A stretch of DNA of 64,000 nt from a virus: the IMG/VR virus record IMGVR_UViG_3300025141_000031; one strand, given 5' to 3'. The notes under the pieces were generated by a model that was not told the DNA's origin, did no database searches, and worked only from the letters and a program-made list of their open reading frames with translations. Each line of letters begins with the position of its first letter. Positions within the stretch are counted from its first letter, which is position 1. Shown here in pieces: positions 16,998 through 57,331 of the stretch. The position numbers and the translations under genes are program-made.

Positions 16998-17000
16998 ATT

Positions 17001-17507
17001 CTAATTTATTTTGTAAATATTTCTATAATTTCTTTTTAGTCCGTTATCATCTAAACCATAACCTACTACCCATTCTTTATCTATTTCAAAACAAAAATGA
17101 TCTACTGGTGGACTATCTTCTTTTCTTTTTAATAAGGTAACTATTTTTACTGCTGCAGGCATCATATCATTAACTCTTAATAAAATTTCTAACATTGTTT
17201 TACCTGTATCAACTATATCATCAACAATATAAACGCTCCTGCCTTTACAATGTAACTCTAGATCTTTTGTAAATTTAACTCCGCCTGAATTATCTTTTCC
17301 TTCATATGATTTAGCTCTAATAAAATCTATTGATACATCTATACCCATATCTTTAACTAAATCTGTAAAGAACATGAATCCACCATTTAATACACATATC
17401 ATTACTGGTGGTAATGAATCTCCTGAAGATTTATGTTCTTCTGATATTTTATGTGCCATTGCTCTGACACGTCTTTCTATTTTATATTCTGGTATTAATA
17501 TTTTCAT
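17001..17507 (-). CDS. hpt: Hypoxanthine-guanine phosphoribosyltransferase
   Basis: CVLNGGFMF, VYIVDDIVDTGKT PRPP loop, WVVGYGLD..RN. Confidence 0.92.
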   Translation of the reverse strand: MKILIPEYKIERRVRAMAHKISEEHKSSGDSLPPVMICVLNGGFMFFTDLVKDMGIDVSIDFIRAKSYEGKDNSGGVKFTKDLELHCKGRSVYIVDDIVDTGKTMLEILLRVNDMMPAAVKIVTLLKRKEDSPPVDHFCFEIDKEWVVGYGLDDNGLKRNYRNIYKIN

Positions 17508-17593
17508 TTTTTGGTTTGTCCGTCACTAAATCCTGTTTTCCATCCATACCATAATAACCCTAAGAAAAATAATCCTGTAAATAATCCGTCCAT
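17504..17593 (-). CDS. 29 aa single-TM micropeptide
   Basis: MDGLFTGLFFLGLLWYGWKTGFSDGQTKK*; start overlaps the folE stop (TAATG) and stop overlaps the hpt start (ATGA). Confidence 0.6.
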   Translation of the reverse strand: MDGLFTGLFFLGLLWYGWKTGFSDGQTKK

Positions 17594-18249
17594 TAATATC
17601 CTTTTACAAATTCATAATACTCATTTCTTGTAGCAGGATCATCTTTAAATGCACCAGTTAATTTACTTGTCTTCATACTCGCACCACCATGTTTAACTCC
17701 TCTACATTGCACACAATTATGAGTTGCATCAATCATTACGGCTACACCGTTATTATCTTCGATGATAGTATCCATTGCATTATGAATTGCAACTGTTAAT
17801 TGTTCTTGTATAGCACCTCTTCTTGCAAAATGTTCTACTAATCTATTTAATTTAGATAAACCAATTACATGACTATCTTTTCCTGGAATATATGCAACAT
17901 GTACTTTACCCATAATGGTTTGATGATGGTGTGAACACATACTAGTTAATGGAATGCCACCTTCAAATACCATACCATCATATCCATCACTCGGAAAGGT
18001 TGTTATACTTGGTGGAGCTTCATATCTTCCAGACCATAAATCATTTACATATGCTTTTGCAACTCTATAAGGTGTTTTATTTGAATTTGGGTCATCTTTC
18101 CAATCCACTTTTAATGCATCTAAAAACTTTCCAAATGCAACACCTGCATCTATAATCATTTTTGATTTTTCATCTTCTGTTAAAGGTCTACCTTTTGCAA
18201 CACCATTTGCAAATCCTTCCTTTACTAATTCTAAATTTAATCTTTTCAT
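17593..18249 (-). CDS. folE: GTP cyclohydrolase I
   Basis: TPYRVAK, SMCSHH, GLSKLNR, IQEQLT, HNCVQCRG. Confidence 0.95.
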   Translation of the reverse strand: MKRLNLELVKEGFANGVAKGRPLTEDEKSKMIIDAGVAFGKFLDALKVDWKDDPNSNKTPYRVAKAYVNDLWSGRYEAPPSITTFPSDGYDGMVFEGGIPLTSMCSHHHQTIMGKVHVAYIPGKDSHVIGLSKLNRLVEHFARRGAIQEQLTVAIHNAMDTIIEDNNGVAVMIDATHNCVQCRGVKHGGASMKTSKLTGAFKDDPATRNEYYEFVKGY

Positions 18250-18545
18250 ATTGATTTCATAACTATTTCTGATTCTCTTACTAGAATATATCTTTTATCA
18301 TCTAATGTTACCTCATTACCATTTTTACCTGATAATAATCTATTAGGAACTAATACAGTATCATCTTCTTTGCATGACATTGCAATTCTATCTCCTGTTT
18401 GAGTATATATTCCTGGACCTACTGCAATAACTTTTGCATACCCATATTCGCTTTCTGAACTCTTTAAGATTAATCCTGATTTTGTTTTTTCTTGTCTTTC
18501 TTCTGCTTTTAATAAAAGCTGGTCACCCATTGGTTTCATTTTCAT
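18246..18545 (-). CDS. groES: Co-chaperonin GroES
   Basis: MKPMGDQLL, KTKSGLIL mobile loop, VIAVGPG, LVRESEIV. Confidence 0.92.
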   Translation of the reverse strand: MKMKPMGDQLLLKAEERQEKTKSGLILKSSESEYGYAKVIAVGPGIYTQTGDRIAMSCKEDDTVLVPNRLLSGKNGNEVTLDDKRYILVRESEIVMKSI

Positions 18546-18562
18546 AATTTTTCTTTTTTTTA

Positions 18563-19336
18563 TTATACCATTCGTTCTGTATCATATGCTATAATATGAT
18601 CTCTACCTGTCATATTATAACCATGTTTTGCTACCATTTCAAATACTTTAGGATACATTTCAAGTAATGTTTCTCTATTATCTCCTGCAGGCATTATATA
18701 TGTTTTATCTTTAGGAGCTCCTATCAATGTTCTAAAATTTTCTATTTCTTCAAGATTTTCTTCTGTTCCATCCCATACTGGTTTGTAATGATAATCTTTA
18801 TGAAACATTATCATTTGCTTCATTGCGTCAAGATTTAATCTTTTCTTATTATGAGTATCAATAAATCTTTGATCTACCACTCTCATTCCTGGAGTCATTA
18901 TTCCTAATTTTGGACAACTATTTGCAAATTTAGGACTTAAACTAATTAAATCAATTGGATAATCTGTTTCTACAAAATGACTACCTTCAGTTTCAATTGT
19001 AATAATAATTCCTCTTTTATGTGCAAAATGTGTTAACTCATTGACCAATGCTGGATGCATTGTTGGTGATCCGCCTGTTAACATCATTTCTTTAATTTGT
19101 GGGTTTTCATCATAAATGTTAATTACATCATTAAAGGTAAGCTTTCCTTTTTCTGGATGTATTGATGTATACCAACTGTCACACCAACCTCCTTCTCCAA
19201 ACCAACATCTATGAGTACATCCTGTTGTTCTAACACAAACAGTTGGCATTCCAATCCTACTTCCTTCTGATTGTACGCACCTGTATAATTCTAATACAGG
19301 TAATACTTTATTATAATCTTTTATTCTTTTATTCAC
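18563..19336 (-). CDS. queE: 7-carboxy-7-deazaguanine synthase (radical SAM)
   Basis: VQSEG, RTTGCTHRC..WCDS, LTGGSP, IETEG, SLSPK. Confidence 0.9.
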   Translation of the reverse strand: MNKRIKDYNKVLPVLELYRCVQSEGSRIGMPTVCVRTTGCTHRCWFGEGGWCDSWYTSIHPEKGKLTFNDVINIYDENPQIKEMMLTGGSPTMHPALVNELTHFAHKRGIIITIETEGSHFVETDYPIDLISLSPKFANSCPKLGIMTPGMRVVDQRFIDTHNKKRLNLDAMKQMIMFHKDYHYKPVWDGTEENLEEIENFRTLIGAPKDKTYIMPAGDNRETLLEMYPKVFEMVAKHGYNMTGRDHIIAYDTERMV

Positions 19337-19817
19337 TATATATTGATGAATTTCTATCGGCTTCCCAACATTCTACTTTTACTACTTTTACTCTACCTCC
19401 TCCTGTTAATGCCATTCGTTCATTAAATTTATCATAAACTAATTTAGCACAAGATTCAGCTCCCATTGCATCCATAATTCTTAAATCTAAAAGACCTAAC
19501 TCTTCCATCATCTTAAATGATTCTAATTGTGGATCATCTTTTTCTATTAAACATGTATGATCAAACATATAATTCATCCAATCTTTTAGGCCATTTCCTG
19601 GAGTTGGTTCTGCATCTGTAGATTTGAATCCACCATAGTCCATAATCCAATTCATTTCATCTAATTGTTTAGATTCCATTATTTCATTAGATTCAAACCA
19701 TACTTTAAACTTTAAAGCATATCCATGTAATAACTTACAATGTGAGTGTTGAGCTTTATGCTGTCTCAGTGCTACTGAATAATTATCGAATATTTTTGTT
19801 GATTGATACTTTGCCAT
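19329..19817 (-). CDS. queD: 6-carboxytetrahydropterin synthase
   Basis: HSHCKLLHGY, MDYG, FDH, GAES, ECWE. Confidence 0.9.
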   Translation of the reverse strand: MAKYQSTKIFDNYSVALRQHKAQHSHCKLLHGYALKFKVWFESNEIMESKQLDEMNWIMDYGGFKSTDAEPTPGNGLKDWMNYMFDHTCLIEKDDPQLESFKMMEELGLLDLRIMDAMGAESCAKLVYDKFNERMALTGGGRVKVVKVECWEADRNSSIYSE

Positions 19818-19839
19818 GTATAACTCCTTTTGTTTATTT

Positions 19840-19869
19840 AATATAAATAAAAATGTTCGTAAGTCCTAG
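19840..19869 (-). promoter_or_regulatory. Class I promoter (queD operon)
   Basis: CTAGGA-N18-TATATT. Confidence 0.7.
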
Positions 19870-19876
19870 TAAATTC

Positions 19877-20221
19877 TTAAGAATTATAACTAGGTGTATA
19901 ACTCCAAACAAACCAATACGTTCTTCCTTTTGGATGTCTATTTAATAAATGAGAACTCATATGACTTGTATGATAAAATTCTGATTCATATCTATTTCTA
20001 GCTTTTTCATCATTAAATAAAGCAAAATCGGATGCATGTGGATATGTTTGATCGAATGATCTACCAGTCTCTTTATAAGACTTTGCATTAATGGTATCAT
20101 AAATCATTGTAGATAGATATTCTTTATCAAACCATGATACACGATTCCAATCGAATCCTTTAACAATTTTTTCTACATCTTGTTTTGTCTTTTTGGTGTG
20201 CTTTGTAACTTTATAGTTCAT
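19877..20221 (-). CDS. Hypothetical protein
   Basis: ORF track 19877..20269; likely start is ATG 20221, just after the upstream stop. Confidence 0.55.
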   Translation of the reverse strand: MNYKVTKHTKKTKQDVEKIVKGFDWNRVSWFDKEYLSTMIYDTINAKSYKETGRSFDQTYPHASDFALFNDEKARNRYESEFYHTSHMSSHLLNRHPKGRTYWFVWSYTPSYNS

Positions 20222-20223
20222 AT

Positions 20224-20475
20224 TTAATTTTTTAATGTTTTTAACGTTTTTTCTAAATTTTGTATACAAATCTTTATATCCGTATTTGCCATTCCTACGA
20301 ATGCTTCATACGCACCACATCTTTTGGCCATTTGAGTTCCAGGATCGTCATCGACTTGTTCTTCTTTAATTCTATCAATATTATTAAACTCTAATCTGTT
20401 TTTAAGAAGTTTAACTTGATACTCTAGATCTAATTTTGCACCATAAATAGTATTGATTAATTGATTCTTTGTCAT
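20224..20475 (-). CDS. Hypothetical protein
   Basis: 83 aa, tightly packed in an early operon. Confidence 0.55.
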   Translation of the reverse strand: MTKNQLINTIYGAKLDLEYQVKLLKNRLEFNNIDRIKEEQVDDDPGTQMAKRCGAYEAFVGMANTDIKICIQNLEKTLKTLKN

Positions 20476-20476
20476 A

Positions 20477-21073
20477 TTATATTAATTCGTTAGTTATTTC
20501 TAAATCTAGTTCCGCGGAACATTCTACTTTTGGCTCATTCTTCATCCATCTACCAAACTCTGTATTGAAGGTATGAGTATCTTTCATTTCATTCCATCTA
20601 TCCGTATGGTATGTTTCATTATGATGATTTGGACCACTTGGACCATTAGGTCTTAAGTTATGCATTTTAGTTTTATACTTATCAATCTGCGTAGCACAAT
20701 TAATACTACCTTTATAACCTATGATTGAATCTTTATCATAACCCCTAGCATCTTTCCAATTATCTTCAACTTGCGTCCAGGTTGTTATTTTTCTAACATT
20801 ACAAATATCTTTTAAGCTATAAGAATAACATAAAGGTAAATCCGTATATTCATCTCTAGCATTAACTGATATTCCATCACATGATAATAATGAAATAAAT
20901 GATGATTCTGATATTGTTGTTTTAGAACCTTTTGCGACCATTAATTGTCCTGGTTCGTCTGATGTTGTACCTTGAGTTGCGGTTGGGTCAATATAACCAT
21001 GATGGTCAAGATATACTACTGCAAATATATCTTTGTTAAACGTAATTTCGTAACTAATTTTTTCTCTATTCAT
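20477..21073 (-). CDS. Hypothetical early protein
   Basis: 198 aa, downstream of tandem promoters and a leader hairpin. Confidence 0.6.
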   Translation of the reverse strand: MNREKISYEITFNKDIFAVVYLDHHGYIDPTATQGTTSDEPGQLMVAKGSKTTISESSFISLLSCDGISVNARDEYTDLPLCYSYSLKDICNVRKITTWTQVEDNWKDARGYDKDSIIGYKGSINCATQIDKYKTKMHNLRPNGPSGPNHHNETYHTDRWNEMKDTHTFNTEFGRWMKNEPKVECSAELDLEITNELI

Positions 21074-21093
21074 TTTTCAATTTTTAATTTTTT

Positions 21094-21113
21094 GATCTAC
21101 TTATGGCTAGATC
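21094..21113 (-). promoter_or_regulatory. Leader stem-loop, copy 1
   Basis: GATCTA-GCCATAAG-TAGATC on the - strand; matches the copy at 28174-28195. Confidence 0.7.
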
Positions 21114-21131
21114 TCCCTCCTTTTTATATAC

Positions 21132-21280
21132 TATAAAGATAAGAAAAAAATCTCATATATCCTAATCTTTTTGAAGCTTTTTTTAACTTTTTTTCATCTT
21201 TTATATCTAATTAACTAATTAATTATATATAAAGATAAGAAAAAAATCTCATATATCCTAATCTTTTTGAAGCTTTTTTT
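21132..21280 (-). repeat. 53 bp perfect direct repeat, each copy containing a class I promoter
   Basis: 21132-21184 is identical to 21228-21280; TTAGGA-N18-TATCTT in each. Confidence 0.9.
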
Positions 21281-21288
21281 CAGAAAAG

Positions 21289-21660
21289 TTACCCTAAATC
21301 TATTTCTTTTTCTAATCGTATACCTGGTAATGTTACTGACCATTTTTTTAATTCTTGATGTGTTTCACCAAATTCATCTTCATCTTGTTCTTCGCCATAA
21401 CAATCAATATATGAGTTTATATTTTCCTTAACTAATAAATCATAAATCTCTTTGGCTACCTGTCCATTTATTGTATCAATATATGGTTCGACCCAACATT
21501 CATCCATAGATATACCACAATATGTAAATTTAACTGATGATTCTTTGTTTACAAGACTTGCTATATGATTACAAAAATGTAAAAACTTTTTTACATCTTT
21601 CCATTGTTCACTCGAGGATTCTTTAATCACTCCATCTGAGGTGTATTGATCGTGTTTCAT
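21289..21660 (-). CDS. Hypothetical acidic protein
   Basis: 123 aa ORF directly after nrdJ. Confidence 0.55.
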   Translation of the reverse strand: MKHDQYTSDGVIKESSSEQWKDVKKFLHFCNHIASLVNKESSVKFTYCGISMDECWVEPYIDTINGQVAKEIYDLLVKENINSYIDCYGEEQDEDEFGETHQELKKWSVTLPGIRLEKEIDLG

Positions 21661-21662
21661 TT

Positions 21663-23519
21663 TTATACTATTTCACATGCACCACCTGCACATGCTAATT
21701 CACCTTTAAGATTTGTTTCATCATCTTCTTCAATAATATCAGATAAATTAATACTTGTTAATGAACCCATCATTCTTTCATATATTTCTTCATCAATATC
21801 TTCAAATGGAGCTTGTGTATATGAACCTCCATCATATGGTAATACTGCCAATCCGTTATAATAATTTTTATTTTCCCATAACCATTCGCCAGCTGCATCC
21901 CATTCATGATCTCTTAATGATATTGTTGCAGATATATTATGAGTATTATTTCCAGATCTATGTCCTGGTTTTATCCATTCTTTAGCTACTTTTTTGACTC
22001 TATCTAAAAGTTGAAAAGGTGATTCTGTTCTCATGATAGCACCTTCTGGAGCTTTTTGTGGTATTTCAATTACTGCTGTATCATGTGGTCTGAAATATTC
22101 GTCTGCAACTAATTCTGGATGATGTTTATTTAAGTGTTGGTATATTGATTCATTCTTACCAACCCTTATTCTACGAATATAATAATCATTATGCCATGCA
22201 TGAATACCAGATGATGTTCCTAATGTTAATGATGTTGTTCCTGCTGGTTTTACTGTTGTAGTTCTTGCAGCTCTATTTATTCCAATTAGTTTTGCAACTC
22301 TAATATTTTCTTCTTTTACAATTTTTGCTGCAGCTTTCATATCATATCCTAGAACTGTACCAGAACCTATACCTGTCATTGAAACGCCTATAAGTGCTTC
22401 TTTTTCTGTTGTTCTTTGCCAAACTGGTCTTAAATAATGGAATTCTGTATAACCTGCTTGGAGTGTTCCAATAAATGCTGCTGTACTAACTCTTTCATTT
22501 AAGTCGTCTTGTGATTCTATATTTGAAACATTTACTTCACATAGATTACAAAATTGAAACGGTCTTAATGCAATTTCGCAACAAGGGTTTGTTCCCCAAT
22601 CTTTATCATTACTTAAATATATTCCTGGTTCTCCTGCTCCTGATAATTCAACTCTTTTCCATAAATCCATAAAAAAGTCTTTTGTAACTCTATGTCTCAT
22701 TAAAACTGCTGAATTATTTGCTCTACCTCTTTGTGAATTTAATTCCCACCAGTTTCCAGTTTTACATGAAATCATTTCGTCATCATCAGCACTAAATAGA
22801 CTAATTAAAGCTGCTCTTCTAATACCTCCTGCTAATACTGCATCAGCAATATAACATACAATATCATGTACTTCTAAACATGATAATTTATCTCCATCAT
22901 TCTTTTCATGTAACATTCCTTTAATTTTAACTAAACATTCTTTTAGTGGTTGAGGTCCTGGAGCTTTTCCTCCTGATGTAACAAGTCGTGCACCTTTTGG
23001 TCTAATGTCTGTAAAATCGAATTTAATAGTTGAGCCATCAAAGAAATATGATTTCATTAAAATCTTTACTGCATCAGCCCAACCTTCAATTGAATCAGCA
23101 ATTAAAAATCTACGTTTTCTGTTTGGATTTGGTTTTCTAATTTCTGGTAGTTCTTCTACATGATGTTTTTGAACTGAATAACCAACACCTGTTCCACCTA
23201 ATAATAAGAACATTGTTTCACTAAATGCGCGCCAATCATCAATTGGTAAATAAGCACAATTAAACACTCTATTAGGAGATATCTCAATAGGCTTTCCAGC
23301 AAATTGCATTGACCTCATAGATGGAAGTACTTTTTTCTTAAGTACTAATTTATACGCTTTCATAATCTCATCATGTAACTCAGGATATTTTTTTAAGTGC
23401 ATTTTTCTATTTCGTGTAACTAGTTCTGTCCAAGTTTCTCTTCTATTCTTATTTGGTAAGAATTTTGCATACTTCATATAAACTGTGATTTCTGAAAGTA
23501 TTTTTGTAGATATGTCCAT
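21663..23519 (-). CDS. nrdJ: Class II (B12-dependent) ribonucleotide reductase
   Basis: LPSMR, FNC, GTGVG, GGIRRAA, TNPCCEI, VKPAGT, C-terminal CAGGAC; no beta subunit nearby. Confidence 0.9.
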   Translation of the reverse strand: MDISTKILSEITVYMKYAKFLPNKNRRETWTELVTRNRKMHLKKYPELHDEIMKAYKLVLKKKVLPSMRSMQFAGKPIEISPNRVFNCAYLPIDDWRAFSETMFLLLGGTGVGYSVQKHHVEELPEIRKPNPNRKRRFLIADSIEGWADAVKILMKSYFFDGSTIKFDFTDIRPKGARLVTSGGKAPGPQPLKECLVKIKGMLHEKNDGDKLSCLEVHDIVCYIADAVLAGGIRRAALISLFSADDDEMISCKTGNWWELNSQRGRANNSAVLMRHRVTKDFFMDLWKRVELSGAGEPGIYLSNDKDWGTNPCCEIALRPFQFCNLCEVNVSNIESQDDLNERVSTAAFIGTLQAGYTEFHYLRPVWQRTTEKEALIGVSMTGIGSGTVLGYDMKAAAKIVKEENIRVAKLIGINRAARTTTVKPAGTTSLTLGTSSGIHAWHNDYYIRRIRVGKNESIYQHLNKHHPELVADEYFRPHDTAVIEIPQKAPEGAIMRTESPFQLLDRVKKVAKEWIKPGHRSGNNTHNISATISLRDHEWDAAGEWLWENKNYYNGLAVLPYDGGSYTQAPFEDIDEEIYERMMGSLTSINLSDIIEEDDETNLKGELACAGGACEIV

Positions 23520-23663
23520 TTTATTTACCTTTTTTGTTTAATTCTTTGTTTATAACGTAAAAAAAGTTGTAACCTTAATTTTACGACTCATCCTAATTTC
23601 ATATATAAATATGAAGCGCAGATGCATTCATGAACGATTTTGACGTAAAAAGTTTAACGTTTT

Positions 23664-25019
23664 TTACTCAAAACCTTCGTTTTGTATTTCTTGGTATTTA
23701 CGTGATAATAATTTTCTCGTAAGCTCATTACCACCATCCATTTGCTTCTGTGTATCCTTTCCTCCTACAGATGTTTCTGCATATAAATGAAACTGCCCAT
23801 TTGAAGTATTCATTTTTGATGGTAACGTTATACCATCAGGTCCAAATCTATTTTTAATAACATGCCATCTTCCAGTTCCTGCTAATTTATCCGCAACCTT
23901 TCTTGATAATGATAATACAAAATCTGCAACCATTACCTTACCATATGATTCAGATATTTTACTTGCATCAATAACATCTTCTTCTAATGCCGATCTATTA
24001 GCTTGGGATGCTGTCCAAACTGGTATATCGTATTCTCCTGCCATTCCTCTTAAGTCTTCGTATATACCTTCCAACTCATGTCTTTTTTCTTGACCATGTC
24101 CTCTTAACAAATCTGCATAATCAACTATAATTACATCAGGTTTCTTATCTTGCATTATACATTTTTCAACATGAGCTCTAATTCCCATTACAGAAACTGA
24201 TTTTGTTGGATAATGTTTAATGATTAACTCGCCTGTTAATTTACTTATTTGTTCTTTTATATCTTCCTGATAATGTTTTAGATTTTGATTTGCAATTCCT
24301 GTTATAACTGAATCATATCTTAATCCAACATATGCTTCATTTAACTCTAATGTATAATGTAATACTGTTTTACCTTTTTTAACTAAATGAGCTCCGACAT
24401 TCATTAATGCCCAAGATTTACCAATACCAGCTGGAGCTACCATTACTCCTAGCTCTCCTTTACCTATTCCTCCATCTGTTAATTCATTTATAACTTCCCA
24501 TGGCGTTTCTTGTACATCTCGTACTGCTTCTGTGTACCTTTCATCTATTTGAGTCATATAATCATGACCAATATCTTTGTCTGCGCCTGCCTTTAAGGCT
24601 TCATCAACTTTAGCTTTTATTCCATCATAATCACCTTGTTTTAATAATTCTACTGATGATAATATAGCCTTTTTGATTTCTTGATTTTTACAGAAATCCA
24701 TTGCCTGATCTTTAATATATTCTAGATCTGGAGACTCTGTATATTTCCATGCATCTTTAAGATGAGATATAATTTGTTCTTTTAGTATATCATGATCAAC
24801 TTTTTCAAGCTTTACTTTCATTACTTCTAATGTCGGAGATGATTTATATTCTTTATGATATTCTAAAATTGTATCTATAATCCAACTGTTGGCATCTGAT
24901 TCAAAATATGATGATAACATAATATCTGAAATTTGCTCCAGAAAACTTTTATCTACAAGTAATGCTGTTATTACTTTAATCTGAAATGCGTAACCGTACG
25001 AACTTAATCTATCTGTCAT
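23664..25019 (-). CDS. Replicative DnaB-family helicase (T4 gp41-like)
   Basis: APAGIGKS, TLEL, IVDYAD, TASQANR, KNRFG. Confidence 0.93.
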   Translation of the reverse strand: MTDRLSSYGYAFQIKVITALLVDKSFLEQISDIMLSSYFESDANSWIIDTILEYHKEYKSSPTLEVMKVKLEKVDHDILKEQIISHLKDAWKYTESPDLEYIKDQAMDFCKNQEIKKAILSSVELLKQGDYDGIKAKVDEALKAGADKDIGHDYMTQIDERYTEAVRDVQETPWEVINELTDGGIGKGELGVMVAPAGIGKSWALMNVGAHLVKKGKTVLHYTLELNEAYVGLRYDSVITGIANQNLKHYQEDIKEQISKLTGELIIKHYPTKSVSVMGIRAHVEKCIMQDKKPDVIIVDYADLLRGHGQEKRHELEGIYEDLRGMAGEYDIPVWTASQANRSALEEDVIDASKISESYGKVMVADFVLSLSRKVADKLAGTGRWHVIKNRFGPDGITLPSKMNTSNGQFHLYAETSVGGKDTQKQMDGGNELTRKLLSRKYQEIQNEGFE

Positions 25020-25024
25020 ACTTT

Positions 25025-25054
25025 AATATAATAATTTTTTTTCTAATATCCTAA
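25025..25054 (-). promoter_or_regulatory. Class I promoter (helicase)
   Basis: TTAGGA-N18-TATATT, 5 nt before the ATG. Confidence 0.75.
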
Positions 25055-26121
25055 TCTTTTCGCATCTGAATATATGCGTTAAGAGTATTGAAGGAAGTTG
25101 CTAACCATGTATCTAAATCTTTTATAACTGTATACATTTTGTCAGCCATAAACATCTTCTTAAATTGGAATGTATTTAATTTATCTACTGGACCTGTAAC
25201 CTTGTCATGTATCATCATCTTTATAGAACCAGCAATATCAACCTCTTTGAGTTGCATAAGATTATGGTTCAAGTCTACCTGGTCCTCTGATTCTACTACG
25301 GACTTATAGATTTTGTAGCGTCCTTCATCTACTCCATCTTTTGCATGATTTATAATTTCATGTATCTTTACTTCCCTATTTTCTGTAACCATTGGAAAGA
25401 ATTTCTTAAGTGATTTCAATGCAACTCCCTTCACTCCAGGAATATTATCTGATTTATCTCCTAAGAATGTTCTATATAATAAATAGTTAGAAGCATTAAT
25501 TCCAAATTCCTCTTGCATTAATCTTGGATTATACATTTTCTTTTTAATTGGGCTCCAAACAGATATTCTATCATTTACTAATTGCAAAAAGTCTCTATCA
25601 GTAGATACAATTTGTACTTTCTGATTTGTTTCTGTATACACTTCATTTGCAATATATGCTATTGCATCATCAGCTTCAATATTATCAACTGCTAACATTG
25701 TAACTGGTAAACAATTTAGGTATTCTATTAATCTACCAAATTGTTTTCTCATAGAATCTGATTCATCTTCTTGTGAAGCAAATTCTTTATATCTGTTAAA
25801 TGCTGTTTTAACAGCTCTATTTGCTTTATAATCTGGATAAATCTTTTTTCTACGTTTTGATCCACCTTTACCATCAAAACATATAATAACTCTAGTTGGT
25901 TTTAATAATCGTATATTTGCGGCTATGGATCTTAAAAATCCTGTTACGCCTCCAATATGATCACCATCATCATTTAATGCTGGGACTGCGGAGAATACTC
26001 TAATGAAGGTATTGAGACCATCGAGTATCAATATTTTACTATTAATATCCGATGGTCTACCTTCTTGATGTTCCTTAACAACGTCTTGGAAAAATTTCTG
26101 AAGTTGTTTATGATTCTTCAC
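25051..26121 (-). CDS. 5'-3' exonuclease / flap endonuclease (T4 RNase H-like)
   Basis: ILDGLN, YKANR, EADD, STDRDFLQL, GDKSDNIPGV. Confidence 0.92.
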   Translation of the reverse strand: MKNHKQLQKFFQDVVKEHQEGRPSDINSKILILDGLNTFIRVFSAVPALNDDGDHIGGVTGFLRSIAANIRLLKPTRVIICFDGKGGSKRRKKIYPDYKANRAVKTAFNRYKEFASQEDESDSMRKQFGRLIEYLNCLPVTMLAVDNIEADDAIAYIANEVYTETNQKVQIVSTDRDFLQLVNDRISVWSPIKKKMYNPRLMQEEFGINASNYLLYRTFLGDKSDNIPGVKGVALKSLKKFFPMVTENREVKIHEIINHAKDGVDEGRYKIYKSVVESEDQVDLNHNLMQLKEVDIAGSIKMMIHDKVTGPVDKLNTFQFKKMFMADKMYTVIKDLDTWLATSFNTLNAYIQMRKD

Positions 26122-27262
26122 CTACAAAATCTTCTTCAATTTCAACATCGTCAATTCCAATATTATCACCTGGTTTGTATGTTAATATATACGCGTTACA
26201 GATAGCCTTGTATATCTCATCCTTCAATTCTGGATCGGCTTCAAGTTTACCTTGAAAGTCCTTTGATAAGAATTTTACGTCTTTACCATCTGCAGTTGTA
26301 TATGTATACCATGCACCAGCTGTACTCACCAATTTATGTTGTTTCATAACATTTAACCAGCCACCAAAATTATCTATTCCACTTTCAAAGTAAATATCAT
26401 AATCGATAGTCTTTAAAGGTGGACCCATTCTATTTTTAATAACTTGGCATCTAGTTTTGATACCAACAGTTTGATCAACGCCGTCCTTCTTAACTTTGAT
26501 CTGTCCTACTGATTTCAATCGTAACCGTACTGATGAGTGAAATGGAATTGCTTTTCCACCACTTGTTGTCCAAGGATCACCAAATGCTACACCTAGTCTT
26601 GAACGGAGCTGATTAGTAAACAATAAGGCAATTCGTTGTCTACCAATTAAGTTTGTAATCTTACGCATACCTTTTGATAATATGATAGCTTTGGACGTTG
26701 CCCAACCATCTTTATCATAGTCTGCTGCTTGTTCAATCTTTGTTGAAGCTCCCATTACTGAATCTACCACAATTGTTACCAATCGATCTTTGTTAGATTT
26801 TCTAACTGATTCAATAATACTTTCAATTGCTTCAAAGATATCCTCAATAGCATCTAATGGAACGTAGAGCATTTTTTCCAGGTCTAATCCAATCGCTTGT
26901 AGAAATTCTCTACTAACTGCATTTTCTGTATCAATATAAACGGCTAACCCACCCTGCTTTTGCGTATCCGCTAAAGCATGAGCTGCCAATAATGATTTAC
27001 CTGAAGCTTCTAATCCTGTTATCTCAGTTATTCTGCCAACTGGAAACCCTCCATTTTTTCTATTTGAGATTGCTAAGTCTAGCATAGAAGAGCCTGTACC
27101 TACCCATCCACCTACTTCACTAGGTGAATCTGTATCTCCGTCTAGGAAATATGCAACTTTATAGTTAGTATTTTTAAATTTCTTATTAAGGCCTTCTCTA
27201 ATACTTTCTCCTAAAGCCGTTGCAAGCTCGTCTGCTTGTTGTGCTTTACTTTTCTTCGCCAT
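26108..27262 (-). CDS. recA: RecA/UvsX recombinase
   Basis: GRITEITGLEASGKS, YIDTE, VVDSV, FTNQLR, TSGGKAIPF, KNR. Confidence 0.95.
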   Translation of the reverse strand: MAKKSKAQQADELATALGESIREGLNKKFKNTNYKVAYFLDGDTDSPSEVGGWVGTGSSMLDLAISNRKNGGFPVGRITEITGLEASGKSLLAAHALADTQKQGGLAVYIDTENAVSREFLQAIGLDLEKMLYVPLDAIEDIFEAIESIIESVRKSNKDRLVTIVVDSVMGASTKIEQAADYDKDGWATSKAIILSKGMRKITNLIGRQRIALLFTNQLRSRLGVAFGDPWTTSGGKAIPFHSSVRLRLKSVGQIKVKKDGVDQTVGIKTRCQVIKNRMGPPLKTIDYDIYFESGIDNFGGWLNVMKQHKLVSTAGAWYTYTTADGKDVKFLSKDFQGKLEADPELKDEIYKAICNAYILTYKPGDNIGIDDVEIEEDFVGEES

Positions 27263-27274
27263 ATATAACCTCTA

Positions 27275-28051
27275 TTATTCGTTAAACAAATCATCAAATG
27301 CCGCGCTGACATCATCGACTTTGTTTACTCCTGTTGTAACTGGTTCTTTCTTTTCTGTTGGTTCAGATGGTGTTGAAGCTGGATCTACGGTCTCTTCACC
27401 TTCTGGGTTCAACCAAGTTGCTAATGCATCTTTTAATTCATCATATGATGGCTCTTTAAATATATCGGATAAATTAGGTTGATTATCAGTAGCTGCTGTT
27501 GCAACATTACTATCTTCAGATATTGCTGATTGATTAGGTTTTACTCTAATAGTAGTCTTTGGAAACTGTCCAGCTCCTTCTGCAGGTGTAAATTCTACTA
27601 AGATATCTCTACCATTCATTGGATCTGTAATATCACCATAATCTGGATCTGCTATTACTCCTAAAAGTTCTTGATAAACTAATTTACCAAATCCCCAAAA
27701 TTTAACACCTTCTGATTCCTTACCTCTTACTATAACAGGAGCATAAGTTCTCATTTTAGGTTCCATCTTCTTACCTAATTTCCATTCATCTGAATTACCA
27801 GAAGATTTTAATTTTTCAGAAAATTCTACTACTGGATCAGGACGACCATGAGTCACCGGTGAAAGATAGTTTCTTTTACCTAAGTCATAATGAAAGTACA
27901 ATTCATTGAATGGATTGTCTTTGTTGTGCTGATAAGGTACGATTCTGATTATTTGTTTGCCTGGTTCAGGCTTCCATAAGTTTGACGTTCTGTTGTTCGT
28001 CGTTTGTAATTGATTAAGCTTTGCCTTAATCGCGTCTAAGTTAATTGCCAT
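27275..28051 (-). CDS. Single-stranded DNA-binding protein (T4 gp32-like)
   Basis: LWKP..IRIVP, VKFWGFGK, DITDP..GRD, acidic tail AFDDLFNE. Confidence 0.85.
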   Translation of the reverse strand: MAINLDAIKAKLNQLQTTNNRTSNLWKPEPGKQIIRIVPYQHNKDNPFNELYFHYDLGKRNYLSPVTHGRPDPVVEFSEKLKSSGNSDEWKLGKKMEPKMRTYAPVIVRGKESEGVKFWGFGKLVYQELLGVIADPDYGDITDPMNGRDILVEFTPAEGAGQFPKTTIRVKPNQSAISEDSNVATAATDNQPNLSDIFKEPSYDELKDALATWLNPEGEETVDPASTPSEPTEKKEPVTTGVNKVDDVSAAFDDLFNE

Positions 28052-28091
28052 TTTTTTATTCCTTTTTTTTAATGGTTAATAATTAATAATT

Positions 28092-28247
28092 AATATAACA
28101 ACTTTATTTCATTTATCCTAAGGTTTATCGAAAAAAGTTGTAAAAAAGTTTTTATTTGTTATTTTTTAATTTTGAGTTTAATTATGGCTAAACTCTAATC
28201 CTTTTTATTTATATATAAATATAATGAATATATTTCATATATCCTAA
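28092..28247 (-). promoter_or_regulatory. Two tandem class I promoters upstream of ssb
   Basis: TTAGGA-N18-TATATT at 28092-28121 and 28218-28247. Confidence 0.75.
28174..28195 (-). promoter_or_regulatory. Leader stem-loop, copy 2
   Basis: GAGTTTA-GCCATAAT-TAAACTC on the - strand; same loop as 21094-21113, different stem. Confidence 0.7.
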
Positions 28248-28259
28248 TTTATTTCAATT

Positions 28260-28859
28260 TTATCTTAATAAATCTAATAATGCTTTTGCGGCTTCATACT
28301 GTTCATCATTAGTTCCATCTATTGTAGATCTTAAATCATCATATGCATCTATAAGTTTCTCATTATTTGGATTATTATATATATCATCATAATAATCACC
28401 TAATTCATCTGTAATATCATCAGTCATATTTGTGTTGTCATCGCCTGCACCTGAATATATTGTAGCTACTACATCATAAAATTCTTCATCCGTTTCAAGA
28501 TTTCTAGCTCCTGTTGATGAAGATCTGTCATAATTAGCTTCACTGTCATTTGCATTAAACTGGATGAAAACATTATGGATATCTTTATCGAAATCAAAAT
28601 CCATTCCTACTCCTGCTGATCTTACTTCATCAGGTATTATTTTATCAAAGACAGTTATGTCATCTAAATATTTATTAAATGTCATTTTAAGTTGTTTGTC
28701 AGACGTTATTTCCACATTAGTCATCCCTAATTGTTTTAGTTTAGCATCTGCTTGTACTATTGGTAAATATGTTTCTGCATCATTTTCTGTTAATAATGTA
28801 AAATCATTGCTTCTAGTTTTACCTTCAAACAATTGTTTATATTTTTTTCCTAAATTCAT
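28260..28859 (-). CDS. Putative internal head protein with shared N-terminal leader
   Basis: Starts MNLGKKYKQLFEGKTRSNDFTLLTE, followed by an acidic body. Confidence 0.65.
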   Translation of the reverse strand: MNLGKKYKQLFEGKTRSNDFTLLTENDAETYLPIVQADAKLKQLGMTNVEITSDKQLKMTFNKYLDDITVFDKIIPDEVRSAGVGMDFDFDKDIHNVFIQFNANDSEANYDRSSSTGARNLETDEEFYDVVATIYSGAGDDNTNMTDDITDELGDYYDDIYNNPNNEKLIDAYDDLRSTIDGTNDEQYEAAKALLDLLR

Positions 28860-29871
28860 TTTGTTCCCTCTTCAAATCTATACATAATACTTGTTGGTTG
28901 TTCTTCTGAGAATTTTTTCATTACAGCAATTGTAGCATTATATTGATCTTTTGGTACTCCATCAAAACCTGAATCTTTTAATTCTTCCATTTCTTTAGAT
29001 GAAGCTACCTTGTTGCCTTTTCTAATTGCCGGAAATGCAAATATATTTATTCTGTTAATCTCATCGACCATATCTTTACCAGCCTTTGCTCCGTGAGCTA
29101 TTATAGCAAGTTGTTTTTTGAATTTTTCATCAGCCTCAGAAGAGCCTGAACTAGTTGGTTTATAATTTTCCAATTCTCCTTCAGCCCATCCTTCAAGTTC
29201 TGCTGCTACTTGTTCAGCTCCTCCATATACGCCAGATGCATCTAATGCGGCTGCTGAATCTTTATCAAATTCAAATGTAATATAATCTGGTTCTGATTTA
29301 TCTATTTTAGCTACTAAGAATTCTGGAAGTCCTTCTCCTGCCACTTCAGTATCTTTTCTATATCCTCCACCAACTTCTCCTTGGGATGTTGGAATCTGAA
29401 CTTCTGTTCCATCTTCTGCAGCAAATAAAGTTTCAAAATCAAGTGCATCTAAATCTATTACATCTTCCCAATCCATTTCATATTGAAATTCTTTAAGTAA
29501 CTTTGCATCATTTGATCTAACTTTACCTTCAAATAATTGTTTATATTTTTTACCTAAGTTCATTTTTATCCTCTTTCTACTGTCCATTTAATAGCACCAT
29601 CAGGATTAATCTTTGCACCTGTTGCAATTAAATCAGCATTAGCTTGTCCAAGCTGTTTATTAATCCATCCTAATGTATATGCAGTCCAAGCTGGTGAATT
29701 ATCTGGATGTCTTGTATCATCAAGAAATCCAAAAAACTCTTCTTGGTCTAATTGAGCTACTTTCATTATGAAAGAATCATCTACTACTTTACCTTCTTTA
29801 AGTAACTTTGAATCATTGCTTCTAGTTTTACCTTCAAACAATTGTTTATATTTTTTTCCTAAATTCATTTT
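28802..29871 (-). repeat. Dispersed direct repeat encoding the shared leader
   Basis: 28802-28862 is identical to 29811-29871 (61 bp); diverged third copy at about 29490-29565. Confidence 0.9.
28856..29563 (-). CDS. Putative internal head protein with shared N-terminal leader
   Basis: Likely start ATG 29563: MNLGKKYKQLFEGKVRSNDAKLLKE. Confidence 0.65.
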   Translation of the reverse strand: MNLGKKYKQLFEGKVRSNDAKLLKEFQYEMDWEDVIDLDALDFETLFAAEDGTEVQIPTSQGEVGGGYRKDTEVAGEGLPEFLVAKIDKSEPDYITFEFDKDSAAALDASGVYGGAEQVAAELEGWAEGELENYKPTSSGSSEADEKFKKQLAIIAHGAKAGKDMVDEINRINIFAFPAIRKGNKVASSKEMEELKDSGFDGVPKDQYNATIAVMKKFSEEQPTSIMYRFEEGTK

Positions 29872-29907
29872 TACTTCTTTTTTTTTATAATATTCGCTAT
29901 ATCCCAT
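29566..29907 (-). CDS. Putative internal head protein with shared N-terminal leader
   Basis: MNLGKKYKQLFEGKTRSNDSKLLKE from ATG 29868 (alternative start 29907). Confidence 0.65.
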   Translation of the reverse strand: MGYSEYYKKKEVKMNLGKKYKQLFEGKTRSNDSKLLKEGKVVDDSFIMKVAQLDQEEFFGFLDDTRHPDNSPAWTAYTLGWINKQLGQANADLIATGAKINPDGAIKWTVERG

Positions 29908-29924
29908 ATCATTAATAAATATGT

Positions 29925-30317
29925 TTATACATCAAATCTTTTATATAATTCTAATACAATTCTACGGTATCCATCATTATTAGTTAACAATAAACTATTA
30001 CTATAATTTTCCCATGTAATAATAAATGTTTTATCTAATACTCCATTATTAACTTTTTTAATAATTTCATTTAATGCATTTACCGTATATAAAGTATTTG
30101 TATCTTTCTTTCTATGTATTAGTATTGTATTTGGCGTTTTTTTATAATCTTCAGTAGGGTCTACATTATATGTAACATAAACATCATTTGGTTTGTCTGC
30201 ATCATTAAATACAAAAATCTTTTTTTCTACTATATTATAGCTTTGTTTAACATAATCTATAATAAGATTTAAGTCTTTTCTATGTGCGAATGTACATAAT
30301 AAGTTAGTTCTTGCCAA
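29925..30317 (-). CDS. Conserved-looking hypothetical protein
   Basis: 130 aa; LLCTF and IHRKKDTNTLYTVNALN; class II promoter upstream. Confidence 0.65.
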   Translation of the reverse strand: MARTNLLCTFAHRKDLNLIIDYVKQSYNIVEKKIFVFNDADKPNDVYVTYNVDPTEDYKKTPNTILIHRKKDTNTLYTVNALNEIIKKVNNGVLDKTFIITWENYSNSLLLTNNDGYRRIVLELYKRFDV

Positions 30318-30375
30318 AATTTTCCTTCTCGTTTTATTCTTATTATAAATATCAACTTTTACGCTGAAACCGTAA

Positions 30376-31953
30376 CTATTCTATAGTTCCTTTTGGTGAA
30401 CTTCCTGGAACACTTGCTCCGAAATATGTTTCAAAATATTCATAGAATGTTGGTGCTTTTCCTTTTTGTCCATAATCAGATGTCCATTGTCCATTTGTAA
30501 ACCTTAAAAATATTGGTATTGTAATTAACTTTTCACCATCTCCATATAATACAAGATCTCGTTGATAATCACCTAACGCTTCACCAGTCCTTTTTGTTTT
30601 CATTTTACCTAGCTTTGCTTCAAAATTACCCTTTTCTATTGCATTTTTTATTATGTCTCTTGATGGTAATGCATGTATTTTCTCACCTCCTTTTGCAACA
30701 TATAAATAAGTTTTCTTATCAGATTCTTCATCTGCTCTTAAAAGATATGTTATGATATCTGTTAAGTCTTCTACTCGTCCTTTAGATTCTAAATCTGTAA
30801 AAAGTACTTCTAGGGGTGGATGAAGATTAGATGCTCTATTCGCAATAATTTTCTTTTTAATATCATTTGGCATTTCTGAATATATTTTTCTATACATATA
30901 TGGTATAGTTCCTGAACCTCTTCCTAAATCATTCCATTCTGGTTCCCAGGATATATCTGATGATTGGTTATCCCATTTTGGATCAGATAGTATATCTTGT
31001 ACTTCTTTTGGCATATCGCCATTTTTTAATCTATCTTTTATCCAACCATTTATTTGTCCTACATAGTATTGTAATCCTGCATCAATAGCTTTTTTAGCTC
31101 CAGCTTGAGTCTTATACATATAATTTAATACACCATCATAATTTGAATCAGCTATTTCTGTATCAAATCCATATAACATTTTCAATATTTTTCCTACTGA
31201 TAAACTTCCGAATTGTCCTGCACCATATTTTAATGATATCCAAACATCTTCTTTTTCACCATTTACTAATATTTGTACGACATCATCTGACACACCTAAA
31301 TCAATTCCTGATGCAACTCTATAAGATTTTACATATGATGTTGGTTGATATAATTGATCTATTTTATTTTTAGTCATATGTGCTGCATCAAATGCATCTT
31401 CCCATTGTGCATAAAATGTTTTTGTGAACTTACCATCTTTAAGATAAACTGTATCTCCTTTTTTCTGGCCTTGTTTCTTTGCTACATCATCTGATGTATG
31501 TTTTGCGCCCACTAAATGATTAATTGCATTATCTGTGGTTACATCTGCATCTTTTAAGGTTCCGGCTGCTCCTTGTCCTATAAGTTCAAAATCTTCTATA
31601 GTTTCTATTTCTGGAGTAGATATTTGTACATTTTGTGTATAATCTTCTCCTGGTGTTATTTTAACTGGAGGTGCAAGCTCTATAATATATGCCAATGCTA
31701 AAGCATAAAATGTTTCATGTAAATTTGTAGTTGCAACTGATGGAGTAGTTTCTACTTCTTCTGGTTCATGTGGTATATAATCAACTGGAGCTTCATTACG
31801 TAAGCTTCGTATAATAGGTTTAGGGTCTATATTATTTTCTGTTAGAATTCTAGATAAAACCTGTAGTTCCATTTTATTATACGGCTGTATCGCATAACCA
31901 TTAGGTAGTCTATAGAACCACTCTCTTAATATATCTGTTACGTTTCTTTGCAT
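30376..31953 (-). CDS. Putative PD-(D/E)XK-like endonuclease with N-terminal leader
   Basis: LHETF...SDDVV...WISLKYG pattern resembling the E...D...SLK restriction-endonuclease fold. Confidence 0.45.
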   Translation of the reverse strand: MQRNVTDILREWFYRLPNGYAIQPYNKMELQVLSRILTENNIDPKPIIRSLRNEAPVDYIPHEPEEVETTPSVATTNLHETFYALALAYIIELAPPVKITPGEDYTQNVQISTPEIETIEDFELIGQGAAGTLKDADVTTDNAINHLVGAKHTSDDVAKKQGQKKGDTVYLKDGKFTKTFYAQWEDAFDAAHMTKNKIDQLYQPTSYVKSYRVASGIDLGVSDDVVQILVNGEKEDVWISLKYGAGQFGSLSVGKILKMLYGFDTEIADSNYDGVLNYMYKTQAGAKKAIDAGLQYYVGQINGWIKDRLKNGDMPKEVQDILSDPKWDNQSSDISWEPEWNDLGRGSGTIPYMYRKIYSEMPNDIKKKIIANRASNLHPPLEVLFTDLESKGRVEDLTDIITYLLRADEESDKKTYLYVAKGGEKIHALPSRDIIKNAIEKGNFEAKLGKMKTKRTGEALGDYQRDLVLYGDGEKLITIPIFLRFTNGQWTSDYGQKGKAPTFYEYFETYFGASVPGSSPKGTIE

Positions 31954-45076: not shown

Positions 45077-45104
45077 AAAAAAAATCCCACCGTAAGGTAG
45101 GATT
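45077..45104 (-). terminator. Intrinsic terminator after tail tube
   Basis: AATCCTACC-TTAC-GGTGGGATT followed by a U-tract. Confidence 0.85.
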
Positions 45105-57281: not shown

Positions 57282-57304
57282 TTAATATAAATATGGATAA
57301 ACGT

Positions 57305-57331
57305 AAGAAAGGTGCCTAAAAAGGCACCCTT
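57305..57331 (-). terminator. Intrinsic terminator after major capsid gene
   Basis: GGTGCCT stem / AGGCACC followed by TTTCTT. Confidence 0.8.

Follow-up and report, generated by a model that had tools for sequence, protein, structure and literature searches.

We analysed a 64,000-nucleotide stretch (hereafter, the window) of an uncultured, AT-rich (30% GC) marine phage of roughly 175 kb, represented by IMG/VR record IMGVR_UViG_3300025141_000031. The nearest isolates are Microcystis phage Mel-JY01 (RecA 56%, SSB 51%) and Flavobacterium phage immuto; neither the region nor the cassette described here gave a DNA match among isolated phages, and a literature search on Mel-JY01 returned nothing. 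Two places in the window carry a short leader hairpin, with the following features:

20477–21073, minus strand: ORF198, an ORFan, the gene served by hairpin 1
21074–21093, minus strand: unstructured A/U tract with AUUAAAAA repeats and without an SD, from hairpin 1 to the AUG of ORF198
21094–21113, minus strand: leader hairpin copy 1, GCCAUAAG; 6-bp stem and 8-nt loop, covariance-model match, MFE −6.4 kcal/mol
21114–21125, minus strand: SD-like, A-rich AAAGG box and 4-nt linker, abutting hairpin 1 (GG at 21120–21119)
21136–21165, minus strand: early-type promoter of copy 1; TTAGGA (21165–21160), 18 nt, TATCTT (21141–21136)
21232–21261, minus strand: tandem duplicate of the copy-1 promoter, 96 nt upstream, with neither a hairpin nor a real ORF behind it
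27275–28051, minus strand: gp32-like SSB gene (PHROG 1192/224; Pfam gp32, 5.5e-14)
28092–28121, minus strand: proximal promoter of the SSB gene, lying between that gene and hairpin 2
28174–28195, minus strand: leader hairpin copy 2, the SSB-upstream type, GCCAUAAU; 7-bp stem and 8-nt loop, fold z −3.6
28196–28207, minus strand: SD-like AAAGG box and 4-nt linker before hairpin 2 (GG at 28201–28200)
28218–28247, minus strand: distal promoter of copy 2; TTAGGA (28247–28242), 18 nt, TATATT (28223–28218)

Both minus-strand hairpins were found exactly where the first-pass annotation had placed them (21113–21094 and 28195–28174). The arms of copy 1 (21113–21108 and 21099–21094) enclose a loop at 21107–21100, and those of copy 2 (28195–28189 and 28180–28174) a loop at 28188–28181; as that annotation had described, the stems differ yet stay paired, and both loops start with GCCAUAA. 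The spacing of 22 nt behind a promoter was likewise seen at both copies, counted from the −10-like hexamer of TTAGGA-N18-TATnTT. Copy 2 indeed has no ORF directly behind it: the proximal SSB promoter comes next, followed by the SSB start at 28051, which leaves the hairpin 122 nt upstream of the SSB AUG. A 13-nt promoter word has five exact occurrences, all on the minus strand. In relatives, the copy-1 promoter class also precedes the hairpin, the distal promoter of the copy-2 type was found in 17 of 24 hairpin-bearing SSB loci, and the proximal SSB promoter was strongly conserved in every one of the 68 relatives whose upstream sequence is long enough.

The leaders share a conserved order—AAAGG box, 4 nt, a hairpin of 6–7 bp, 17–21 unstructured nt and the AUG—in which the hairpin is the sole predicted structure (−3.7 to −9.6 kcal/mol). 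The tract between hairpin and AUG, which the first-pass annotation had not remarked upon, contains two UUAAAAA repeats with no SD ahead of the AUG, and is conserved across 13 leader variants. In hairpin leaders the AAAGG box lies 45–50 nt ahead of the AUG, without an AUG, GUG or UUG 5–10 nt past it, as is typical of a STAB-SD; in hairpin-less leaders with the same promoter class, the box is an ordinary SD, 8–9 nt before the AUG. The register of GG, 4-nt linker, stem and loop GCC..AA is invariant among copies, although the position of this box does not count as independent evidence, as all copies share descent.

A covariance model built on the two window copies was scanned over the 64 kb. The two copies scored 44.7 and 46.6 bits (E about 1e-7), and the next best match reached 16.7 bits (E 0.4); scoring these copies against their own model is circular, so the independent evidence comes from relatives. 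Further copies with covarying stems were found there, in line with the check that the first-pass annotation had suggested. Among nine distinct copies, 96.8% of cells were paired, with double changes in five of the seven pairs; none of 500 shuffles was as good, and slid alignments reached at most 43%. Similarly, among 19 distinct copies, 97.0% of stem cells were paired and 33 were double-changed (slid controls at most 44%), the compensatory double changes again affected five of the seven pairs and included A-U to G-U to G-C paths, and the loop GCC-NN-AA-N was kept throughout. To obtain a sample unbiased for the hairpin, we fetched 12 loci through homology of the downstream protein; all 12 carried a fully paired hairpin, with six different stems.

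The wobbles in the 19 copies are G-U on the sense strand only (four cells), never A-C, and one set of orthologues (L218, L216 and L227) forms an A-U, G-U, G-C series; both observations fit folding of the transcribed strand. Furthermore, one related genome (G001) contains three paralogous copies, each with a stem of its own but all with one loop type. This argues against a palindromic DNA operator, since the three stems could not all be recognised by a dimeric protein that reads DNA half-sites. An Rfam cmscan of positions 17000–31000, with E up to 10, gave no match at either hairpin, preQ1 classes included.

In IMG/VR relatives, the element occurs at three places, two or three copies being present per genome: ahead of the gp32-like SSB gene, before a small winged-helix gene, and in a variable slot after the RNR gene, which corresponds to the 21-kb site of the window. 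Different ORFs follow the hairpin in that slot in the window, L243 and L245. The copy-2 sequence is identical in 34 IMG/VR contigs, with the SSB promoter next in every one, and this hairpin is invariant while the SSB proteins of the same contigs diverge by up to about 27%. The SSB gene lacks an upstream hairpin in 44 of 68 relatives; in seven others, the hairpin lacks its own promoter and comes immediately after another gene's stop codon. The AAAGG box is retained where the upstream promoter is lost (L038, L055, L058–L063) and is missing together with the hairpin in hairpin-less SSB alleles (L010, L012, L068). Breakpoints fall just upstream of the box, and at least seven changes in hairpin presence are required on the SSB tree. 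The hairpin cassette has thus been gained and lost repeatedly, and its structure, covariation, loop conservation, leader position and recurrence at three loci are established.

The proteins encoded behind hairpins in relatives include a winged-helix family (family A) and a KOW-like family (family B). The last 27 residues of ORF198 resemble the C-terminal tail of family A; a search of IMG/VR found no relatives of ORF198 itself. The KOW barrel of family B is closest to Spt5 KOW5 and the NusG C-terminal domain, with matches below curated thresholds, and family B was not found in the window. The phage also carries genes for 7-deazaguanine synthesis (GTP cyclohydrolase I, PTPS and a radical SAM enzyme).

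We compared the leader with known systems. In T4, the gp32 operator combines a folded 5′ element with an unstructured A+U tract whose UUAAA/UAAA repeats extend over the RBS (PMC3014915, PMC535899); the hairpin that forms the gp43 operator is loop-specific and sits about 40 nt ahead of the AUG (PMC3014915). The gene 32 operator of T4/RB69 resembles our leader in placing a folded 5′ element before an unstructured, UUAAA-type A+U tract that runs to the AUG. It is, however, an H-type pseudoknot rather than a plain hairpin with a conserved 8-nt loop, its tract exceeds 40 nt rather than spanning 17–21 nt, and it serves the SSB, whereas the best-placed copies here serve winged-helix, KOW-like and ORFan genes. 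The gene 43 operator of T4/RB69 is likewise a short hairpin a few tens of nt before the AUG, with a loop of the 8-nt class in which bases including adenines are specificity determinants; its loop sequence differs, and no hairpin copy stands before the family B polymerase gene here (14308–16791).

The first-pass annotation had instead likened the hairpins to the promoter–early stem-loop (PeSL) cassettes of some T4-type phages. PeSLs carry a GC-rich terminator stem-loop upstream of the promoter, with the stem as the conserved part (PMC2839356, PMC4122927). The two share a sigma-70-like early promoter with a nearby stem-loop (within 60 nt here), as well as insertion/deletion junctions, ORFans and duplicated promoter cassettes. 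The likeness fails in the element itself: the PeSL stem-loop lies upstream of the AT-rich region and −35 box, has a free loop and occurs in dozens of copies per genome, whereas the hairpin here lies downstream of the promoter, is AU-rich without a U tract, conserves its loop rather than its stem and occurs two or three times per genome. Only the SSB copy also lies upstream of a (second) promoter. The lambda nut site (boxB) similarly combines a small hairpin, a conserved loop, a variable stem and few copies soon after early promoters, but its loop is a GNRA-like pentaloop rather than 8 nt. The 5′ stabilisers of Gram-positive bacteria and their phages (STAB-SD and 5′ stem-loops) share the start-less SD-like box near the 5′ end beside a hairpin, but require no specific loop sequence. 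Overall, the leader layout resembles the T4 gene 32/43 translational operators more closely than PeSL cassettes or nut sites.

The covarying stems and the conserved loop point to a functional, structure-selected element that is recognised through its loop, most likely as RNA. The proposal that it is a protein-binding RNA or DNA element survives in part: the functional, loop-read element stands, and the covarying stems and the three stems in one genome argue against a palindromic DNA operator. The hairpin would then be a previously undescribed regulatory RNA element of this uncultured lineage; its RNA action, protein binding and translational output are what we infer from the comparative pattern.

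Our favoured reading, to which we give somewhat less than an even chance, is a protein-recognised RNA operator over a small early regulon, with translational control of the T4 gp32/gp43 type. The SD-less, UUAAA-rich tract from the hairpin to the AUG points in this direction, although UUAAA repeats alone are weak evidence because A/U-rich tracts are common at 30% GC. A few early transcripts would carry the hairpin as a structured RNA element of their 5′ leaders, with the loop as the recognition (nucleation) site for a trans-acting protein, which might extend across, or cover, the neighbouring unstructured initiation region and thereby repress translation; altered stability of these mRNAs could be a secondary effect. 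The most economical candidate binder would be the phage's own gp32-like SSB: a gp32-family protein is encoded, and one hairpin copy lies within the long leader of that gene. Alternatively, the winged-helix or KOW-like proteins may bind, in which case control would be autogenous. Several observations run counter to the operator. A Pfam sweep of 37 ORFs of the window revealed no such binder, that is, no RegA-like or other RNA-binding regulator, and no antiterminator family. The SSB copy is distant from its AUG, and the intervening promoter is predicted to make transcripts without the hairpin; moreover, the SSB copy is promoterless in seven relatives, and 44 of 68 SSB loci are hairpin-free.

Other explanations account for parts of the same evidence. 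Bacillus STAB-SD and 5′ stem-loop stabilisers work by holding the 30S subunit or blocking nucleases at the 5′ end, and the element might likewise be a 5′ mRNA stabiliser or processing signal, in which the AAAGG box holds 30S, or box and hairpin together block a 5′-end-dependent nuclease (RNase J or RNase E), so that a few early mRNAs would last longer. Box and hairpin do lie about 10–40 nt from the predicted 5′ end, are gained and lost jointly at the SSB locus, and have no other predicted structure beside them in the leader. We nevertheless consider this unlikely: a hairpin that only protects has no need of a conserved loop, but GCC..AA stays the same in all 19 variants; the roughly 16–18 unpaired nt ahead of the hairpin would be a poor guard against 5′-end-dependent attack; and where the hairpin is promoterless it is not at a 5′ end at all. 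The lambda boxB hairpin recruits N, and a nascent hairpin here could similarly recruit a phage factor to RNA polymerase for antitermination or elongation, as the first-pass annotation had proposed with its nut/put-like role. Low copy number, position soon after an early promoter, a conserved loop on variable stems and the KOW barrel of the downstream family B, with its kinship to Spt5 and NusG, are all compatible with such a site. Predicted terminators lend it no support, however, as the coding strand has no predicted terminator from 17 to 31 kb, and the phage elsewhere uses canonical GC-rich terminators with U tracts. Neither a boxA-like partner nor an arginine-rich, N-like protein was found in the 64 kb examined, and family B is missing from the window and matches KOW under curated thresholds, all of which makes a nut-like site improbable.

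We give a similarly small probability to action at the DNA level, in which a cruciform or single-strand hairpin would serve as a PeSL-like recombination or shuffling site, or would signal replication or priming, with the RNA incidental. The cassette does occupy variable junctions, with different ORFs in the post-RNR slot, at least seven presence changes upstream of SSB, breakpoints immediately before the AAAGG box, and a tandem promoter duplication with an empty cassette in the window. However, homologous recombination between cassettes requires neither a hairpin nor a conserved loop, G-U wobbles are confined to the sense strand, and three stems in one genome would lower homology rather than promote exchange; PeSL stem-loops are, furthermore, GC-rich terminators upstream of the promoter (PMC2839356). 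A riboswitch-like pseudoknot, stabilised by a ligand or factor, would pair the GG of the box with the CC of the loop and thereby hide or expose the SD-like box, with the loop adenines docking in the groove. The invariant register of GG, linker, stem and GCC..AA, the joint disappearance of GG and hairpin, and the 7-deazaguanine genes would fit, but two base pairs are too few for stability, the Rfam search gave no riboswitch match, and the box to be hidden is far from the AUG; GG:CC covariation is impossible because both sides are invariant. We regard this as very improbable. Hardly credible, finally, is a neutral relic of a duplicated leader: one cassette could have given both window copies, and the SSB copy precedes no ORF, but compensatory changes in five of seven pairs with 97% pairing over 19 variants, and an SSB-type copy invariant in 34 contigs despite SSB divergence, speak against decay, while the 12-locus protein-anchored sample argues against an artefact of selecting paired sequences.

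Further candidates were tried and rejected. A preQ1 riboswitch, suggested by the 7-deazaguanine genes, had no Rfam match; an intrinsic terminator on either strand was not supported, as an A-rich tract follows the hairpin and a terminator scan did not flag the hairpins. A leader peptide or mini-ORF with its start within the hairpin was set aside, since only some copies have near-cognate codons. Folding of the hairpin would still leave the AAAGG box over 20 nt away from the AUG, so split-RBS bridging of the kind seen in T4 genes 38 and 25 was rejected too. For a pseudoknot of the loop with the A-rich tail, the tail offers no GCC complement and the linker is too short; loop pairing with UUAUGGC-type start regions was dropped because the genes in question have no such sequence. 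Scanning IMG/VR for a generic loop-plus-tail pattern gave only chance matches among the matches listed.

An extension of the operator reading, which we consider decidedly unlikely, is that the loop is a portable regulon tag carried by several unrelated early mRNAs and read by a phage protein, most simply the gp32-like SSB when in excess over single-stranded DNA. The tagged mRNAs would be those of the winged-helix regulator, the KOW-like factor and ORFans, with genes joining or leaving by cassette exchange. To our knowledge, the mRNA of the SSB itself is the only one for which gp32-type autogenous control has been described; if true, the tag would widen such control into a mobile circuit of several genes, in an abundant lineage of uncultured marine phages.

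We know of almost no exploration of cis-regulatory RNA motifs in uncultured marine phages. The comparative support for this element, absent from Rfam, is unusually clean for one so small, and its covariance model can be used for annotating the lineage in metagenomes. Early genes of three kinds share a single recognition loop; should the SSB or one of the small regulators behind the hairpin prove to be the binder, the element would offer a directly testable case of post-transcriptional early-gene timing in a large phage, and would also show such control moving between genes as a cassette.

Both minus-strand hairpins described in the first-pass annotation were seen in the window sequence.

21113-21094 (minus strand): hairpin copy 1, 6-bp stem (21113-21108 with 21099-21094), 8-nt loop (21107-21100)
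28195-28174 (minus strand): hairpin copy 2, 7-bp stem (28195-28189 with 28180-28174), 8-nt loop (28188-28181)

The reported conserved GCCAUAA opens both loops, and the reported 22-nt spacing is the distance from a -10-like hexamer to the hairpin start in both copies, with TTAGGA 18 nt before the hexamer (early promoter class; TTAGGA, 18 nt, TATnTT). The 13-nt promoter word occurs exactly five times in the window, on the minus strand only. Copy 1 is separated by 20 nt from the start codon (AUG) of a 198-codon ORF (ORF198). Copy 2, correctly described as having no ORF directly behind it, has a second promoter downstream and, beyond that, the gp32-like SSB gene, 122 nt away from the hairpin. The covariance-model scan that had been suggested recovered more copies in relatives, and none in the window, where the best hit beyond the two copies, for a model trained on them, had an E value of 0.4.

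We also observed a perfect tandem duplication of a 53-nt early promoter unit (period 96 nt; window 21132-21290, minus strand), the upstream unit of which has only AT-rich spacer and a 4-codon mini-ORF behind it and is thus an empty cassette. A TTAGGA-N18-TATATT promoter lies at 25020-25054 (minus strand), within the end of the exonuclease gene, its -10 box just 5 nt ahead of the annotated AUG (25019) of the DnaB-like helicase; either the helicase mRNA is leaderless, or the real start is further downstream of 25019.

The window has a GC content of ~30% and ~70 ORFs, every one on the minus strand, and the hairpins are surrounded by a phage replication module (gp32-like SSB, RecA/UvsX-like recombinase, 5'-3' exonuclease, DnaB-like helicase and class II RNR). 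No DNA-level match was found among isolated phages, the nearest isolates by protein being Microcystis phage Mel-JY01 and Flavobacterium phage immuto; marine relatives number in the hundreds in IMG/VR, with the largest contigs at ~130 kb (estimated completeness 72-73%). Structural genes have another, late-type motif ahead of them. A second promoter-like motif with a ATATTTATAT core, usually with TAAAT behind it, is far commoner than the early class and stands ahead of structural and some other genes.

Near 57300, 53140, 47850, 45640, 45060, 43890, 30340, 19850 and 4975 (minus strand): examples of the ATATTTATAT-core motif

This motif is probably the late promoter class, because no TTAGGA box lies upstream of it; the early class holds a related TTTATA core.

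Every promoter-bearing hairpin copy has the same leader order: -10 box, ~13 nt, A-rich AAAGG box, 4 nt, hairpin, tail and AUG. The tail measures 17-21 nt from hairpin to AUG and contains two AUUAAAAA repeats, and the hairpin is the sole structure predicted by leader folding (-3.7 to -9.6 kcal/mol). A survey of 99 distinct leaders of the early promoter class revealed that the majority are short and without structure, and that their AAAGG box stands 8-9 nt ahead of the AUG; in these short hairpin-less leaders the box is an ordinary SD. Hairpin leaders carry it 45-50 nt from the AUG, with no SD in the AUG-proximal tract, and the box was therefore counted as displaced. At one relative's locus (L209), two early-class leaders have a different hairpin and loop (8-bp or 4+4-bp stem, 5-nt purine-rich loop) at the same leader position, with the same A-rich tract behind; leader hairpins of this lineage may fall into at least two classes.

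We then turned to the relatives with enough sequence upstream of SSB (n = 68), where a hairpin identical to copy 2 was present in 24 and absent in 44. The distal promoter was found at 17 of the 24 hairpin-bearing loci and retained at 7 of the 44 others; at the remaining 7 of the 24, the hairpin lies right after another gene's stop codon with no distal promoter. The exact 22-mer of copy 2 occurs in 34 IMG/VR contigs, followed in all by the SSB promoter and start. Hairpin presence on the SSB tree takes at least seven changes, at least four forced by well-supported branches, and together with the identical 22-mer this indicates recurrent gain or loss of an SSB-locus hairpin whose sequence does not change. 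Hairpin-less SSB alleles also lack the GG of the AAAGG box; GG and hairpin are therefore gained or lost jointly. The 120-nt stretch from hairpin to SSB start (window 28052-28173, minus strand; the same in relatives' loci L001-L080), containing a twice-repeated CTTTTTT box, promoter and leader, shows far stronger conservation than the SSB coding sequence, as judged across relatives with 72-90% SSB protein identity.

The covariance model also found copies bearing different stems at other loci. One set sits ahead of a small gene (family A), and loci of this family fetched purely by protein homology had a fully paired hairpin in 12/12 cases, with six different stems. Another set follows the RNR gene in a slot that lies 7.2 kb further downstream than the SSB copy and is copy 1's position in the window; this set precedes a second small gene (family B; L243, L245, L255, L260 and L262).

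L218:1501-1806, L220:1456-1788 and relatives: family A, 95-110 residues, winged-helix model
L245:8111-8353, L243:1217-1495, L255:474-707, L262:12580-12849: family B, early protein, 77-92 residues

The 129.6-kb contig of one large relative (G001) carries all three copies with three different stems; a 127-kb relative (G002) has no hairpin copy, no family A and no family B.

Across nine distinct copies, 96.8% of cells were paired and 5/7 pairs showed double changes; 0/500 shuffles scored as well in pairing or covariation, and pairing fell to 8-43% when the partner was slid by 1-3 columns. Nineteen distinct copies gave 97.0% pairing and 33 double-changed cells (slid controls, 7-44%), some copies having been sampled by selection for paired stems, from which the protein-anchored sample (12 family A loci) is free. 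One pair runs through an A-U, G-U, G-C series in orthologous leaders. Wobble cells were G-U on the sense strand without exception, with no A-C cells, a pattern that fits a hairpin folding on the transcribed strand. Unpaired cells were exclusively A-A, at the base or closing position. Loop positions 1-3 (G, C, C) and 6-7 (A, A) are kept, with 4, 5 and 8 variable. A covarying stem with a conserved loop would imply that the folded strand is recognised in a sequence-specific way; a palindromic DNA operator appears unlikely, because half-sites differ among the copies of one genome while an asymmetric centre is kept.

No Rfam family matches the hairpin. An intrinsic terminator was rejected from the hairpin sequences of both copies and a terminator scan; canonical terminators (GC-rich, U tract) are present elsewhere in the window. 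The suggested likeness to promoter-early stem-loop cassettes (PeSLs) does not hold as these are defined, PeSL stem-loops being GC-rich terminators with conserved stems that lie upstream of an AT-rich region and a -35 box (PMC2839356, PMC4122927). Two other sites in this phage do have the true PeSL-like order of terminator then promoter, with a late-type promoter behind each.

~57308-57331 (minus strand): canonical intrinsic terminator, GC-rich stem and U tract
~45077-45104 (minus strand): canonical intrinsic terminator, GC-rich stem and U tract

The genes behind the hairpins appear to encode small proteins of nucleic-acid-binding type, the fold assignments being weak and leads only. The family A model (mean pLDDT 68) best matched MecI, MarR and PadR (E ~1e-2). 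The family B model (mean pLDDT 82) comprises an N-terminal helix and a KOW/Tudor-like barrel, best matching Spt5 KOW5 and the NusG C-terminal domain (E 3e-3 to 2e-2), and its match to Pfam KOW5_SPT5 (3.4e-5) was under the family cut-off; family B may act, as a phage factor, on RNA or on transcription elongation. The C-terminus of family A is a conserved acidic tail with an invariant Cys-Ser, a Leu-Asp-Asn and, last, Asn-Glu-Ser-Ile; the same tail (window 20480-20560) closes the otherwise unrelated ORF198, encoded behind copy 1, which suggests a shared partner-binding peptide.

Several explanations compete for the hairpin's role. The strongest rival is a 5' stabiliser or processing signal, in keeping with the orphan SD-like box but at odds with the conserved loop and the promoter-less copies. 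A nut-like site ranks next: the number of copies and the presence of a KOW-like gene would suit it, but no coding-strand terminator is predicted between 17 and 31 kb. Sense-strand wobbles and dissimilar stems weigh against a DNA-level recombination or priming signal, which cassette turnover would favour and which we place third, ahead of a tiny GG:CC pseudoknot. Least favoured is a neutral relic, against which the covariation speaks.

We tentatively prefer a protein-bound translational operator of a small early regulon, because of the covarying stem and conserved loop, the likeness to T4 operators, and a phage-encoded gp32-family SSB whose gene has one hairpin copy within its long leader. A candidate binding protein would read the hairpin loop, and translation of a few early genes would be controlled. 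Among described architectures the T4 gene 32 operator comes closest: gp32 nucleates on a folded 5' element and then spreads along an unstructured A+U tract that spans the RBS and contains UUAAA/UAAA repeats (PMC3014915, PMC535899). In the gene 43 operator, a loop-specific hairpin lies about 40 nt ahead of the AUG (PMC3014915). The arrangement found here differs from both PeSLs and T4 operators. The leader hairpin itself is a small RNA motif that is both new and well supported, belongs to a known general category and has a putative function.
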